Shown: positions 43,867 to 47,635, counted from the first letter of the stretch. The stretch: DNA of 53,870 nucleotides from an uncultured archaeon (GCA_964558645.1 CAZLEV010000004.1:53472-107341); one strand, 5' to 3'. Numbers and translations are program-made. Notes: generated by a model not told the origin, from the letters alone.

Positions 43867-44355
43867 TTACACCCTCTCAGGCTTCTGAGAGAAACGCTTC
43901 TTGGTTCTCTGAACGCGCCCATCGTCGTATTTGGGAAGCTGATCATAGTTGCCATCCCAGTGTAGAGGCTGGCACTCCGGCATCTTATGCAGAAGCTGAC
44001 CCAACATAAAGGCCATTGAAACGGGACATGAGAGTGCAATCTTAAGCGAGGTCAGCCCTATTGCTCTCCGGATACGGTCGATGACGACAGCTGTGTCTTC
44101 TGAGAGCCGAGTAATCTTGTCAACTGGTATCTGATGAGGTGGACCGATGACGGCCAGAACATCGTATGCTGCCGCCTTGAGATCGGTATACACCGGTCGT
44201 GAGAACCCGACTCCAATCACTGGATTATCAATGTCATCGGGAAGGGCCACATCCGGGATTTTGTTTGGGTCAGAGATTGCCTCAATGATATAAGAAGGGC
44301 CCGAAACCTCCACCTCGCCAATTCTCACTGTCGTCTGTTCAACCTCTTGAGTCAT
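43867..44355 (-). CDS. Stand-alone half-SAVED domain protein A
   Basis: VIGVGFSRPV...IALSCPVSMAFMLGQLL...LHWDGNY matches the SAVED C-terminal-half pattern (hhh.xP.xhAF.hG...Y). 162 aa. Confidence 0.68.
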   Translation of the reverse strand: MTQEVEQTTVRIGEVEVSGPSYIIEAISDPNKIPDVALPDDIDNPVIGVGFSRPVYTDLKAAAYDVLAVIGPPHQIPVDKITRLSEDTAVVIDRIRRAIGLTSLKIALSCPVSMAFMLGQLLHKMPECQPLHWDGNYDQLPKYDDGRVQRTKKRFSQKPERV

Positions 44356-44483
44356 TGCGGCACGAGAAAACGTAGGGCACCTTATGGACTTGTCGGATTG
44401 CCCAGATCCGTCAATCCAATGATGTCCGGCGGTACTCTCAGAGTTTCAGCAATCCATAGAGGGAAGTAAGAAAAGGAGGCAAC

Positions 44484-44975
44484 ATGATTGCCAATTGGCA
44501 GGAGAACCATAGTATGGCGGATATTCTTACAACTTTCGTTGGAAGCATTGGCTATCTGATATCGACCAAGTATGAGCAGATACGGGACTGGATGGAAAGG
44601 CGTCAAGGAGTGCCGTTGAGAATGGAGCTCGATGATGGAAGACCCCCAGCAATCGTTGTTTCTTTTTCACAGGATGTCGCCGATGACGTTAAGATTCAAG
44701 GATTCAATGTTATAGCCCAAATAGGCACACCGAAGAAGCTCTCGACAAAAGAGATAACCCGTTGGTCAGAGGGAGCTGCTGCAATCATCGAACAGATGCG
44801 ACGAGGAGTTTCTCAAGGGCCCCTGACGGTAGCACTCAGCTGTCCTGTTGCTGCTGCTTTCACGATTGGACTCATCCTGGGCCATAGCGCAGAGTACCGA
44901 ATACTTCACTGGGACGGAAAAAGTTACGTCCCGCTTGAATTCATAGACATGGATAGGTTTAGGAAGAGTCTATAG
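44484..44975 (+). CDS. Stand-alone half-SAVED domain protein B, hydrophobic/amphipathic N-terminus
   Basis: AIVVSFSQDV...VALSCPVAAAFTIGLIL...LHWDGKSY, with an AAGGAGG SD. Paralog of protein A. Confidence 0.68.
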   Translation: MIANWQENHSMADILTTFVGSIGYLISTKYEQIRDWMERRQGVPLRMELDDGRPPAIVVSFSQDVADDVKIQGFNVIAQIGTPKKLSTKEITRWSEGAAAIIEQMRRGVSQGPLTVALSCPVAAAFTIGLILGHSAEYRILHWDGKSYVPLEFIDMDRFRKSL

Positions 44976-45831
44976 ATCTCGGGATTTGCTCTAGACCTCT
45001 CGTGTCGATATTCCCCACATCGTATCTCTTGAAAGAATACAGCCCATCAAATGAAAACGTATCAGGAAGCTCTTCGTAGTAGATATGATTCAAGAGGGGA
45101 GAAGGAGTGCCATTTCTCTTCCGCATATAGAGAATAGGCAAGAAGCTTCGCAGTTCTCCATGCATCTTCTCTTGCCACTTGTTGATCCATTGCGCCGCTC
45201 TCATATGGCACATGACAATTTCATGGGCGTCTGGGTATGTGTTGTGCTTCATTTCAAAGAGGCATACCTGATCCCCGACCACTGATACTGCGTCAATTTC
45301 GAACTCATGGCGCCAACCATGTCTGCCTTCTCTCAATAGAGAGAAACTCTTGAGAAGGCCTCCGAGATCCCACCTGCGACTCAGTCTGTTGAACAGAGGA
45401 AACTCATGTGGACAGTCAGGGTTTGCAGGGCAACGACTGACGAGCAGATACTTGTTTCCGTTCTCTCGAAGTCTATAATGCACCACCCCTGGCGGGGAAT
45501 CTCGAAATGGTTCACGACCTGCTGAAGTGCGGAGATTCGCCCTCACTTCTGTAAGGGAATGGTTGATTCCTGTGAGCTCGGGGAACATGAAATCGTCCAA
45601 CATCGCGTCTATGACATCAAGAACATCCCTAGGGGACATGGCATGCTGTGGCACATAGTATCGTCCATCAACGCGCTCCTTGTTTTCGGGAGCAACAAGC
45701 TCACTGGCCAGCCTCAGAATATGCCGCCCTGCCTGGAACACAAGGATGTTTCCAGCTGCATCTAGTCTGACAACCCCTCTTGAGAGGAGAACACCAAGTA
45801 CATCATTTACAAACGTACGATAATTGTACAT
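44959..45831 (-). CDS. PD-(D/E)XK (restriction endonuclease-like) nuclease
   Basis: HEFEIDAV......CLFEMK motif in the C-terminal half; GGTAGGAG SD. Confidence 0.68.
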   Translation of the reverse strand: MYNYRTFVNDVLGVLLSRGVVRLDAAGNILVFQAGRHILRLASELVAPENKERVDGRYYVPQHAMSPRDVLDVIDAMLDDFMFPELTGINHSLTEVRANLRTSAGREPFRDSPPGVVHYRLRENGNKYLLVSRCPANPDCPHEFPLFNRLSRRWDLGGLLKSFSLLREGRHGWRHEFEIDAVSVVGDQVCLFEMKHNTYPDAHEIVMCHMRAAQWINKWQEKMHGELRSFLPILYMRKRNGTPSPLLNHIYYEELPDTFSFDGLYSFKRYDVGNIDTRGLEQIPRSIDSS

Positions 45832-46011
45832 CTCCTACCACCATGAAACAATAGGTAGTAGTCATTCATAAGCGTTGTCAGTCGGTACGTGATATAACGC
45901 AGATGAGGGAGAGATATCTGCAACACAATCGGATGGCCATCCTGTAGAAACAGTCTTGACAAGCAATCGATTTTTATCTCTGGGTCTCTTAGGTCAAATG
46001 GAGATGATTGA

Positions 46012-46572
46012 GTGGCGTATTACTTCACGGTCGTGGGTACCACGCCCATAGCTTGCGCAAACGCTCTGAGCTGGTACGTTCGCACAGGTGCGGGTCCCGA
46101 GATTGAAGATGTCTTTTTCATTGCCTCATCTGAAGAGAAGACCAAGAGGAGCAGCAGTGCGAAGTACATCAGAGAAACCCTTCGTCTGGCGAGAGAGAAT
46201 CTGAAACGGATGGCGCCCGAGGCTCTTGATGAGTTGACGTTTCACGAAGACACGCCGACTCTCATTCCTGAGGCCGACCTCGGGGTGGCTACGCGTCTCA
46301 TAGCAGAGGGCATTCTCGCTCACTGTCCGAGTGATACGACAGCCGTCATTGATGCCACGGGGGGACGAAAGATGATGACCGCCAGTGCGATTCTAGCAGG
46401 AATCGTCCTGAGTGAGAAACATAAACGGCACATCCTATTCTCATATTACTGGTTGAAGCGCTTCACCCGAGATATGCTGGGGAAGAGAGCATACGAACTA
46501 GGACTCGACGAGGCTGAGACCGTTGTCAAGGAGGTTTCGGACATCAATGACGAAATCAAGAAGATCGGATAA
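46012..46572 (+). CDS. Stand-alone CARF protein, Crn1 ring-nuclease-like
   Basis: TVVGTTP and IDATGGRKMM CARF motifs, 186 aa, no fused effector. TTTTTATC TATA at 45971 and a GGAG SD. Confidence 0.8.
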   Translation: MAYYFTVVGTTPIACANALSWYVRTGAGPEIEDVFFIASSEEKTKRSSSAKYIRETLRLARENLKRMAPEALDELTFHEDTPTLIPEADLGVATRLIAEGILAHCPSDTTAVIDATGGRKMMTASAILAGIVLSEKHKRHILFSYYWLKRFTRDMLGKRAYELGLDEAETVVKEVSDINDEIKKIG

Positions 46573-47635
46573 GAACAGGCCGCCCGAGAGCCTGATCGAG
46601 TTCCTCAATTGCTGCTTCGATGAGAGAGTCTGGGATATTCGTGGATGGAATGAACGCGCTGCGGACCGTTTCAAGGTGAGCATAGACTGGGACTCGGGAT
46701 CTGTGCAGACCGATTCCTCCAGCCGTATGCCAAAGCTCGCATTGACGCACATGGCATGGGGAGCAGGACTCATACCGGCCAAGAATGAAGATGAACTCAA
46801 CAGCATCATTGACGGGGCACTGGAGGAGTCGGGAAATCGAACGGTTGCACTGGCACTGGACACGAATCTGGTCTATTCAAGATTCTATCCCAACTTCATA
46901 ATGCGATATCATGGCGACCCGTATGAGTCAAAGCCACACTTCGTTCTGCTGTGCCAGGGCACCTATCACGAACTGCATTACAAGCTCAGTTACAGAATCA
47001 GAAACAGGGATCTTATCGATTCCTTGTGCAAGTTCTATGAGAATGACCATAGACCGTACTGGTTGCTGACACGCAGACGGAGCATGAGGGGGGAAGAGGA
47101 GGGAAAGAGGATCCTTCGTAGGGTTCCGGAGTATAACGGACGACTGGGCATCAAGGGCCTTAGAGAAGTGAAACGTCTTCAGGAGAACTACCCGGTCATC
47201 ATGAGTAAGCCGAATCACATATACTACTCCGAGGCAATACAGGCCCAGAGCAGATTCATGGATGCAGTCTTCGACAGTCTGATCCGCTACGAAGCGGCAT
47301 TTCTCAGGAATAATACAAACACTCGAGTCCTGTTTCTGACTTCGGATAAACATCAATACCAATCAGCAGACAGCGAGGGGATGGAGGCGCTCTACGTGGA
47401 ACCCCCCACATCCTACGCAGCCCTTTCGACTATCAATCGGAACAGCCTGAGGATTGGGAATATGATGCGCCTCATCGAAGAACTCCTAGTGTTCTCCCCC
47501 TGTATCGAGCTTCGAATAGGAGACAACACCACCTACCTGACCAGCGGCTGGGAGGGGATGGGGCCTCAAGATGCTCGCGATGGCATCATCAGAGGGATTT
47601 GGAATGACCAAGAAATTCAGCTCACGACGGACTAA
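46547..47635 (+). CDS. PIN-domain ribonuclease with an N-terminal extension
   Basis: ALDTN, HEL, FDSLI and LTSDK supply the four PIN acidic residues. ATG at 46547 after AAGGAGGT, inside the CARF gene. Confidence 0.78.
   Translation: MTKSRRSDKNRPPESLIEFLNCCFDERVWDIRGWNERAADRFKVSIDWDSGSVQTDSSSRMPKLALTHMAWGAGLIPAKNEDELNSIIDGALEESGNRTVALALDTNLVYSRFYPNFIMRYHGDPYESKPHFVLLCQGTYHELHYKLSYRIRNRDLIDSLCKFYENDHRPYWLLTRRRSMRGEEEGKRILRRVPEYNGRLGIKGLREVKRLQENYPVIMSKPNHIYYSEAIQAQSRFMDAVFDSLIRYEAAFLRNNTNTRVLFLTSDKHQYQSADSEGMEALYVEPPTSYAALSTINRNSLRIGNMMRLIEELLVFSPCIELRIGDNTTYLTSGWEGMGPQDARDGIIRGIWNDQEIQLTTD

Follow-up and report, generated by a model that had tools for sequence, protein, structure and literature searches.

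In signaling by cyclic oligoadenylates (cOA) the sensor and the effector are almost always fused, and the mechanistic models have been built on that fusion. The locus described here raises the question of how such domains should be read when they are carried by separate, adjacent genes. It lies in a stretch of 53,870 nucleotides from an uncultured archaeon (GCA_964558645.1 CAZLEV010000004.1:53472-107341), hereafter the window, where five genes labelled g1-g5 are located between a type III-D-like effector operon and a CRISPR array: two half-SAVED genes (g1 and g2), a PD-(D/E)XK nuclease gene (g3), a CARF gene (g4) and a PIN nuclease gene (g5). The original prediction, made from the sequence alone, regarded them as a modular cOA response and possibly as an undescribed type III ancillary system. 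Our analyses indicate that the island is probably made up of three separately inherited modules, g1+g2, g3 and g4+g5, located beside a Cas10 protein able to make cOA and lacking the HD nuclease motif.

The five open reading frames (ORFs) were confirmed by ORF listing and translation exactly at positions 43867-47635 (all coordinates are positions in the whole window, Table 1). Both the coordinates and each domain call were verified, together with the arrangement in two divergent units, g1/g2 and g3/g4-g5, and with the absence of fusion between the domains in a cOA-signaling locus. The g2 and g3 genes are convergent with an overlap of 17 nt, and g5 begins before g4 has ended, in the +1 frame relative to it. 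Since close homologues of the window proteins were found in metagenome-assembled genomes labelled Thorarchaeota or Lokiarchaeota, the host is an Asgard archaeon.

The conservation of the island was investigated in 101 relatives and, separately, in 400 sampled genomes of the phylum. All five genes were found in the same order in locus L070 (Logan SRR7048220, 1-12792), which showed 73.5% nucleotide identity over 3956 nt and where the block is flanked on the g5 side by the CRISPR repeat of the window. The homology stops right past g1, and a gene of 542 codons, a Csa3-like gene and a Cmr2-type Cas10 locus occur there in place of the III-D operon. As the same block stands beside a different effector module in L070, the ancillary block and the effector module must have recombined. 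These data show that the five genes stay together over short evolutionary distances and that the effector module next to them can vary. In more distant genomes g1+g2, g4+g5 and g3 occur apart, and of the 400 sampled genomes this one alone has both the half-SAVED pair and a member of the g5 family. The gene-neighborhood survey returned the g1/g2 pair and the g4/g5 pair as recurrent elements and the whole block only in the close relative L070, outside which the three modules are separate, and the five genes could not be maintained as one system.

The persistence of the block and of its gene order beside a different type III module, as if it had been moved or retained as a unit, together with the convergence of g3 on g2, would be expected if all five genes formed one integrated ancillary system, in which the split SAVED and the CARF proteins sense cOA and control g3 and g5 in trans. 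However, with 73-83% amino-acid identity L070 is so close to the window that its gene order is weak evidence. No other of the 400 genomes combined the pair with the g5 family, and locus L079 carries g4-g5 at a III-D operon without g1-g3. We consider a single integrated system very unlikely.

The g3 protein gave no match to the hidden Markov models (HMMs) of Pfam, NCBIfam and PADLOC, including those of the CARF and SAVED domains; phmmer against the PDB sequences returned nothing useful, and Foldseek on the structure model returned no match at E<=1e-3. The Atlas clusters retrieved for g3 were NERD, Mrr_cat and Card1_endonuc. The model, with a predicted local distance difference test score (pLDDT) of 86, showed a PD-(D/E)XK domain at residues 118-271, and the residues E143, E178-x-D180 and E193-x-K195 were invariant (8 homologues). 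Residues 1-105, an unassigned N-terminal domain on which no separate search was made, were modelled as a helix, three strands and further helices, without the look of a Rossmann-type sheet. Structural alignment with VIA-align placed residues 118-271, including the catalytic D...ExK motif shared with Can2, Card1, Can1 and Cdn1, nearest to Cdn1, VC1899, Can1 and Can2 (Z 8.9-8.4), and the nearness to the cOA-activated Cdn1, Can1 and Can2 would speak for a nuclease integrated in the response. Nevertheless, NucS/EndoMS and AF1548 scored 7.8-7.9, so that the margin between the Can-type and generic PD-(D/E)XK nucleases is less than one Z unit. Moreover, unlike Can2, Card1, Can1 and Cdn1, g3 has no CARF domain and its family is not CRISPR-linked elsewhere.

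Homologues of g3 were found in 9 of the 101 relatives and had no conserved neighbors in common. Outside L070 they never occurred within about 10 kb (the fetched flanks) of g1, g2, g4, g5 or type III genes, being located among housekeeping genes such as those for the proteasome alpha subunit, RimK, GlnA (glutamine synthetase), an aminoacyl-tRNA synthetase and acetyltransferases, and the CRISPR repeat of the window was absent near them. Two observations speak for a link of g3 to the other genes: four of the six genomes with the half-SAVED pair carry a g3 homologue, and six of the nine g3 genomes have Cas10. Since the block was also kept beside two different type III modules, a functional tie of g3 is possible; the genome-level association with the pair and with Cas10 is weak and may merely reflect shared ancestry. 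We conclude that g3 is a PD-(D/E)XK nuclease of an Asgard-specific family usually found among housekeeping genes and probably a passenger in the island, where it would be present by chance.

A different nuclease was observed in locus L058, where a true Can2/Card1-like CARF-PD-(D/E)XK gene (2183-3220, minus strand, 345 aa) is convergent with a B-type half-SAVED gene and occupies the relative position that g3 has in the window; a CARF-HEPN protein of 575 aa (3757-5484, plus strand) comes after it. The possibility that g3 is a degraded Can2 of this type was rejected, as hhalign of the g3 family against the L058 gene returned an E value of 0.12.

The second module, g4+g5, combines a CARF sensor with a PIN nuclease. 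The g4 protein contains a CARF domain with a D-x-T-G-G-R-K motif, and G9, D114, T116, R119, K120, Y145 and Y146 are invariant in its family. The family profile matched Crn1/Sso2081 over the whole CARF domain (5e-6) and the Sis ring nuclease 7z55 (1.5e-4), while the N-terminus of g4 was matched by the PADLOC model CARF_m1--CARF_PIN at 4e-5. Comparison with the published description (PMC10018336) showed that g4 keeps the equivalents of the Crn1 residues contacting cyclic tetra-adenylate (cA4), namely T10, S11 (Thr in g4), G104, R105 and K106. The structure model of g5 (pLDDT 88, predicted template modelling score 0.89) revealed a PIN core, and D105, E142, D243 and D267 are the invariant acidic residues. 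Although phmmer of g5 against the PDB sequences returned nothing useful, VIA superposed residues 1-354 of the model on residues 129-399 of SiRe_0806 with Z scores of 13.2 and 12.8 (232-237 aligned residues, root mean square deviation 3.8), compared with a Z of 11.0 for the PIN domain 3i8o.

SiRe_0806 is a protein of 407 aa from Sulfolobus islandicus, deposited in PDB as a "PIN domain-containing protein" both in the apo form (9jxw) and with cA4 (9jxx); a literature search found no paper on it. The entire g5 protein, comprising an N-terminal linker domain, the PIN core and a C-terminal domain, superposes on it with 14-16% identity, and both occur in a type III neighborhood. Therefore, g5 corresponds to SiRe_0806 minus its N-terminal CARF domain, which is supplied by g4 with its cA4-binding motif. 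Unlike in SiRe_0806, the CARF and PIN parts were found as two polypeptides with translational coupling in all the Asgard loci examined, and the g4 CARF domain is nearer to Crn1 than to that of SiRe_0806 (E 0.3).

The g5 family was detected in 19 of the 400 phylum genomes, distributed over at least 10 families. With HMMs built from our own alignments, 21 of the 23 loci that could be assessed showed a g4-like CARF gene beside the g5 homologue; a second g12 copy (L051/L078), which ends at a contig edge, is outside the 23. The two genes are mostly co-directional and overlapping or abutting, and they are divergent in four loci of one family. No CARF-PIN fusion occurred in the 21 loci holding both genes, where no open frame was long enough to encode one. 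A recent frameshift or an assembly error as the origin of the split was ruled out, since the +1 overlap is conserved at 25-49% identity and the split is maintained even where the orientation changed.

The pair was also found at type III loci other than that of the window. It directly abuts a homologous III-D operon in L079, abuts type III RAMP genes in G085 and is located near cas1-cas2 in L076. Cas10 was detected in 13 of the 19 g5 genomes versus 56 of the 381 others (Fisher 5e-7; related genomes are not independent). The association of g4 with g5 was further evaluated by complex prediction, which returned a score of 0.46 (runs 0.43, 0.46 and 0.56) compared with 0.00 for the best of 3 controls; the runs agreed in at least 83% of the contacts and the partners showed a pLDDT of at least 86. 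In the calibration the mark was reached by 58 of 80 solved complexes and by 2 of 110 mismatched pairs. Scores up to 0.60 that passed the mark belonged to only 7 of the 80 solved complexes and to both mismatches; at 0.46 the calibration is wrong more often than right unless the prior is good. As a like protein has been solved as a single chain, the pass may in addition reflect this likeness.

Several data weigh against the pair being a cOA-activated effector of type III systems. Cas10 was not detected in 6 of the 19 g5 genomes, the well-assembled genome G144 has the pair and the type III genes on different contigs, and in G163 the pair is far from the single weak RAMP match of the genome, in which no Cas10 was found. 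The linkage of g4-g5 to type III genes is therefore not obligatory. The complex prediction, for its part, backs the association of the two proteins only weakly.

The same incomplete association with Cas10 would be expected if g4 were a stand-alone off-switch of the Crn1 ring nuclease type and g5 an independent PIN nuclease, or a toxin with g4 as its antitoxin, neither of them being a cOA-activated effector. Crn1/Sso2081 is the best solved sequence match of g4, and the lengths are similar; g4 also shares with Sso2081 and Sis0455 the G-T-[ST]-P and T-G-G-R-K motifs and a C-terminal helical extension (PMC10018336). A small upstream gene overlapping a PIN gene is the classic VapBC layout, and the g5 copies in L050 and in the more distant L088 have no neighboring CARF gene. 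However, unlike Crn1, g4 is nearly always paired with, and overlaps, a PIN gene equal to the effector part of a fused CARF-PIN, and g5 matches the whole non-CARF part of the cA4-binding protein, including the linker domain that follows the CARF domain. The CARF gene remains beside g5 even in divergent orientation, the g5 genomes are enriched in Cas10, and the complex prediction is well over the controls, though weak. An off-switch next to an unrelated nuclease thus appears unlikely. Both readings could nevertheless hold together, as a sensor can also cleave the ligand it binds.

On the basis of these models, it is well founded to regard g4 and g5 as a putative CARF-PIN effector of the SiRe_0806 type that is divided over two polypeptides instead of forming a single chain, with a sensor acting on a nuclease across polypeptides. 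A g4 CARF dimer would bind cOA and then activate the PIN nuclease g5, the two proteins would be produced by translational coupling, and g4 may also degrade the signal. As for the proposed control of nucleases in trans, it can be retained for g4 and g5, a conserved unit matching a solved cA4-binding CARF-PIN protein; nothing indicates that the SAVED halves control g3. In the Asgard pair, which is natural and conserved, the action of the sensor has to pass through a protein-protein interface, and pairs of this type offer a route to study allosteric activation and possible partner exchange.

Some g4-g5 loci showed additional features. In L071 (937-10357) and L076 (134-8030) the pairs are located a few kb from ThiF (E1), E2-CBASS and JAB genes, cas1-cas2, a NYN-domain gene and a Csa3-like gene, and these CBASS-type neighbors suggest that the pair possibly also reads CBASS-type signals. 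A CARF gene in L071 (8763-9303) is split into two ORFs and is intact in the near-identical L072 and L073, while one g5 copy in G027 (C35:4046-5080) contains an in-frame TGA; both are signs of occasional decay of the module.

The third module consists of the half-SAVED genes g1 and g2. The two proteins are paralogues with 42% identity, and matched the Pfam SAVED family (PF18145) with E values of 2e-5 and 6e-3, respectively (24.8 and 16.8 bits versus a gathering score of 26.2). The Pfam and NCBIfam SAVED models were matched in their C-terminal half only, whereas the PADLOC model SAVED4--SAVED, of 104 positions, was covered almost end to end by g1 (1e-8) and g2 (2e-7). Further PADLOC matches were the SAVED domain of CRISPR-Lon for g1 and g2 and, for the half-SAVED proteins, SAVED4--SAVED_TM; the nearest Atlas clusters of the family were SAVED. 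Each protein has one CARF-like lobe of about 160 aa, and two lobes in one polypeptide were seen only in the fused relative P0004/L046.

The nearest solved relatives are SAVED ring nucleases. AcrIII-2 is a viral stand-alone SAVED protein of 230 aa that sandwiches and cleaves cA4 (PMC12751052; for the CalpL/Crn5 context, PMC11417357). The family profile matched both lobes of AcrIII-2 (9r8s) at 3e-13 and CalpL at 7e-5; separate profiles gave 2.4e-14 for AcrIII-2 and 1e-7 for CalpL with the B-type sequences, to which g1 belongs, and 1.4e-7 for AcrIII-2 with the A-type sequences, represented by g2. As in AcrIII-2, the SAVED domain of CalpL and the proposed Crn5, the g1/g2 domain appears to be a SAVED of the CalpL type (SAVED4), with no effector domain attached, and the genes are found inside type III loci. 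The catalytic residues of AcrIII-2 (R96, K99, H128 and S194) were compared with the two proteins. The serine of the SCP motif, within LSCPVSMAF in g1, aligns with S194 and is present in both g1 and g2, and an R-x-x-K/R pattern is kept in both C-terminal tails near the position of R96/K99. Differences from the known proteins are the single lobe per gene, so that a unit of SAVED size takes two paralogous genes or a secondary fusion, and an additional N-terminal hydrophobic helix in the A-type proteins.

In the tree the A-type proteins form one clade with 99/100 support, g1 being outside it, and therefore the A/B duplication is older than these genera. The A-type proteins share the N-terminal hydrophobic helix and a C-terminal D-x-D-R-F-R-R/K-x-L tail, and a second clade consists of single-lobe proteins of 140-180 aa. 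The fused protein P0004 has one half in the A clade and the other among the B types. The assignment of the A type to the N-lobe and of the B type to the C-lobe of SAVED was rejected, since both separate profiles matched the C-terminal lobe of AcrIII-2 best. This result suggests, at the level of profile comparison, that the pair may have arisen from a single duplicated lobe and not from fission of a classical SAVED. A homologue search with g2 retrieved only 3 proteins; the profile search reached further, with 83 matches at E<=1e-3 (13 below 1e-30) in 1.84 billion representatives. The family is archaeal (Asgard) and very narrow.

The g1- and g2-type genes always occur together among the 101 relatives, as a divergent pair in G015, G017, G014 and G008 and as an A-B fusion of 348 aa (P0004) in G006. 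A divergent pair is also found in L058-61, where it adjoins a Can2-like CARF nuclease, a CARF-HEPN gene and Cas10/RAMP/Csx19 genes, while in L062/63 the pair is tandem (A->B), with a Cmr operon that includes cas6 on one side and, on the other, a CRISPR array with cas1-cas2 beyond it. In all, the type III loci with stand-alone SAVED genes inside or close by were those of the window, L070, L044, L046, L058 and L062. The pair is present in 6 of the 400 phylum genomes, confined to the family of the window and in two units every time, and Cas10 was found in 5 of these 6 genomes versus 69 of the 400 overall.

Given that AcrIII-2 and CalpL, both ring nucleases, are the closest relatives of solved structure, the likeliest role that we infer for g1+g2 is that of a heterodimeric, Crn5-like cOA binder or ring nuclease. 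Most likely, g2 (A) and g1 (B) would assemble as an A/B heterodimer recreating the two-lobed SAVED fold; this heterodimer is predicted to bind cOA, probably cA4, and would tune or reset signaling as a cellular Crn5-like protein. Some features weigh against this role. The S194-equivalent serine is replaced by alanine in 6 of 10 A-type and 3 of 10 B-type sequences, no equivalent of H128 was found in the half-SAVED family, the ring-nuclease residues being only partly recognizable, and the N-terminal hydrophobic helix of the A type is left unexplained.

That helix, with a 19-residue Kyte-Doolittle maximum of 0.9-1.9 across the family, could be accounted for if the pair were an effector, in which cOA-driven A/B stacking gathers the A-type helices and harms the membrane, as proposed for proteins fusing SAVED or CARF with a transmembrane segment (SAVED-TM/CARF-TM). 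The helix is present in all A-type proteins and in the single-unit relatives and reaches 1.7-1.9 in several of them; SAVED4--SAVED_TM is among the PADLOC matches, P0019 is a true TM-SAVED relative, and the equivalent of the catalytic serine is not strictly kept. On the other hand, the helix of g2 has a maximum of only 1.14 and, at about 15 residues, is short for crossing a membrane. Soluble ring nucleases are the closest proteins of solved structure, and the single-unit relatives occur in viral genomes, where a signal destroyer is more expected than a host-killing effector. A membrane effector is thus rather unlikely.

Beyond the Crn5-like role, it is conceivable, and we advance it tentatively, that the A/B pair is a previously undescribed heterodimeric SAVED, generated by duplication of a CalpL-type lobe into obligate partners and re-fused in some lineages. 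It would constitute a new kind of regulator of cOA in the cell, acting as a heterodimeric ring nuclease similar to Crn5 or as a sensor tethered to the membrane, with its viral single-lobe relatives representing a new type III anti-CRISPR family. If this were true, the heterodimeric half-SAVED would replay the CARF-to-SAVED transition.

A viral single-lobe relative was observed in P0032 (8001-8429 in both L064 and L065), a half-SAVED protein of 142 aa with an N-terminal hydrophobic helix, encoded on viral contigs of 32-35 kb bearing portal, Mu-F and terminase genes. One of these contigs comes from sample ERZ27227317, which is also the source of the host-type half-SAVED pair L061. P0032 can be regarded as a candidate viral cOA ring nuclease or sponge similar to AcrIII-2.

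Nothing categorically new was found in the island. CARF and PIN proteins have been catalogued as type III accessory proteins, e.g., Msed_1167 and ST0035 (PMC6546367), and stand-alone SAVED genes in type III loci, although rare, have received from the authors of AcrIII-2 the proposed name Crn5 (PMC12751052), so that the idea of an undescribed ancillary system was not wholly borne out. The island as a whole is not a new defense system, and its treatment as one unit would mislead annotation. The most original element is the two-gene SAVED, which is rarer than the CARF-PIN pair and bears on the evolution of SAVED from CARF dimers; with it the Crn5 family of ring nucleases may gain a heterodimeric member, and it points to the small viral single-lobe homologues as anti-CRISPR candidates.

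Finally, we analyzed the type III context of the island. The type III operon, the CARF-HEPN and CARF-winged-helix-turn-helix (wHTH) genes and three CRISPR arrays were all found, in agreement with the predicted setting (Table 1). Csx7 was above cut-off for two genes of the operon, the Csx10 match (TIGR02674, 2e-8) was under its cut-off, and PADLOC placed the small subunit as a III-D Csm2. In line with the predicted cyclase-only type, Cas10 keeps GGDD, and its N-terminal region lacks an HD dipeptide. PF22335 was matched by no other protein of the genome, so that this is the only Cas10 detected, and the cOA at the locus is presumed to come from it. The count of five candidate signal-binding proteins was revised to four sensor units on five polypeptides, namely the Csm6-like and Csa3-like proteins, g4, and g1+g2 together.

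Table 1. Positions of the island genes and of the neighboring type III features in the window
Feature	Position	Strand	Description
g1, B-type half-SAVED protein, single CARF-like unit	43867-44355	-	162 aa
g2, A-type half-SAVED protein	44484-44975	+	163 aa
g3, PD-(D/E)XK nuclease	44959-45831	-	290 aa
g4, stand-alone Crn1-like CARF protein	46012-46572	+	186 aa
g5, PIN nuclease subunit	46523/46547-47635	+	370 aa (TTG 46523, ORF opening) / 362 aa (ATG 46547)
Type III-D-like effector operon	34905-43155	-	Csx7-type RAMPs, Csx10-like gene, Cas10, 615-aa double RAMP, Csm2-like small subunit
Cas10	37355-39883	-	842 aa; Palm2 domain 5.7e-16; GGDD present
Csm6-like CARF-HEPN effector	33333-34865	+	TIGR02710 2.7e-37; Csm6 HEPN 1.8e-12
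Csa3-like CARF-wHTH regulator	32299-33138	-	TIGR01884 1.1e-5; DUF6293 C-terminal winged helix 1.2e-5
CRISPR array 3	47990-53870		37-nt repeat; directly downstream of g5

An Rfam scan of positions 42500-48500 returned no RNA family at E<=0.1. An ORF of 94 aa between the Csm2-like gene and g1 (43328-43612, minus strand) gave no Pfam, NCBIfam or PADLOC match and falls in the junction, the homology with L070 stopping just past g1. Within the effector operon, the protein of 615 aa (40186-42033, minus strand) carries two Csx7-like RAMP units on one chain, and the matching region of the III-D operon in L079 is occupied by two separate RAMP genes.

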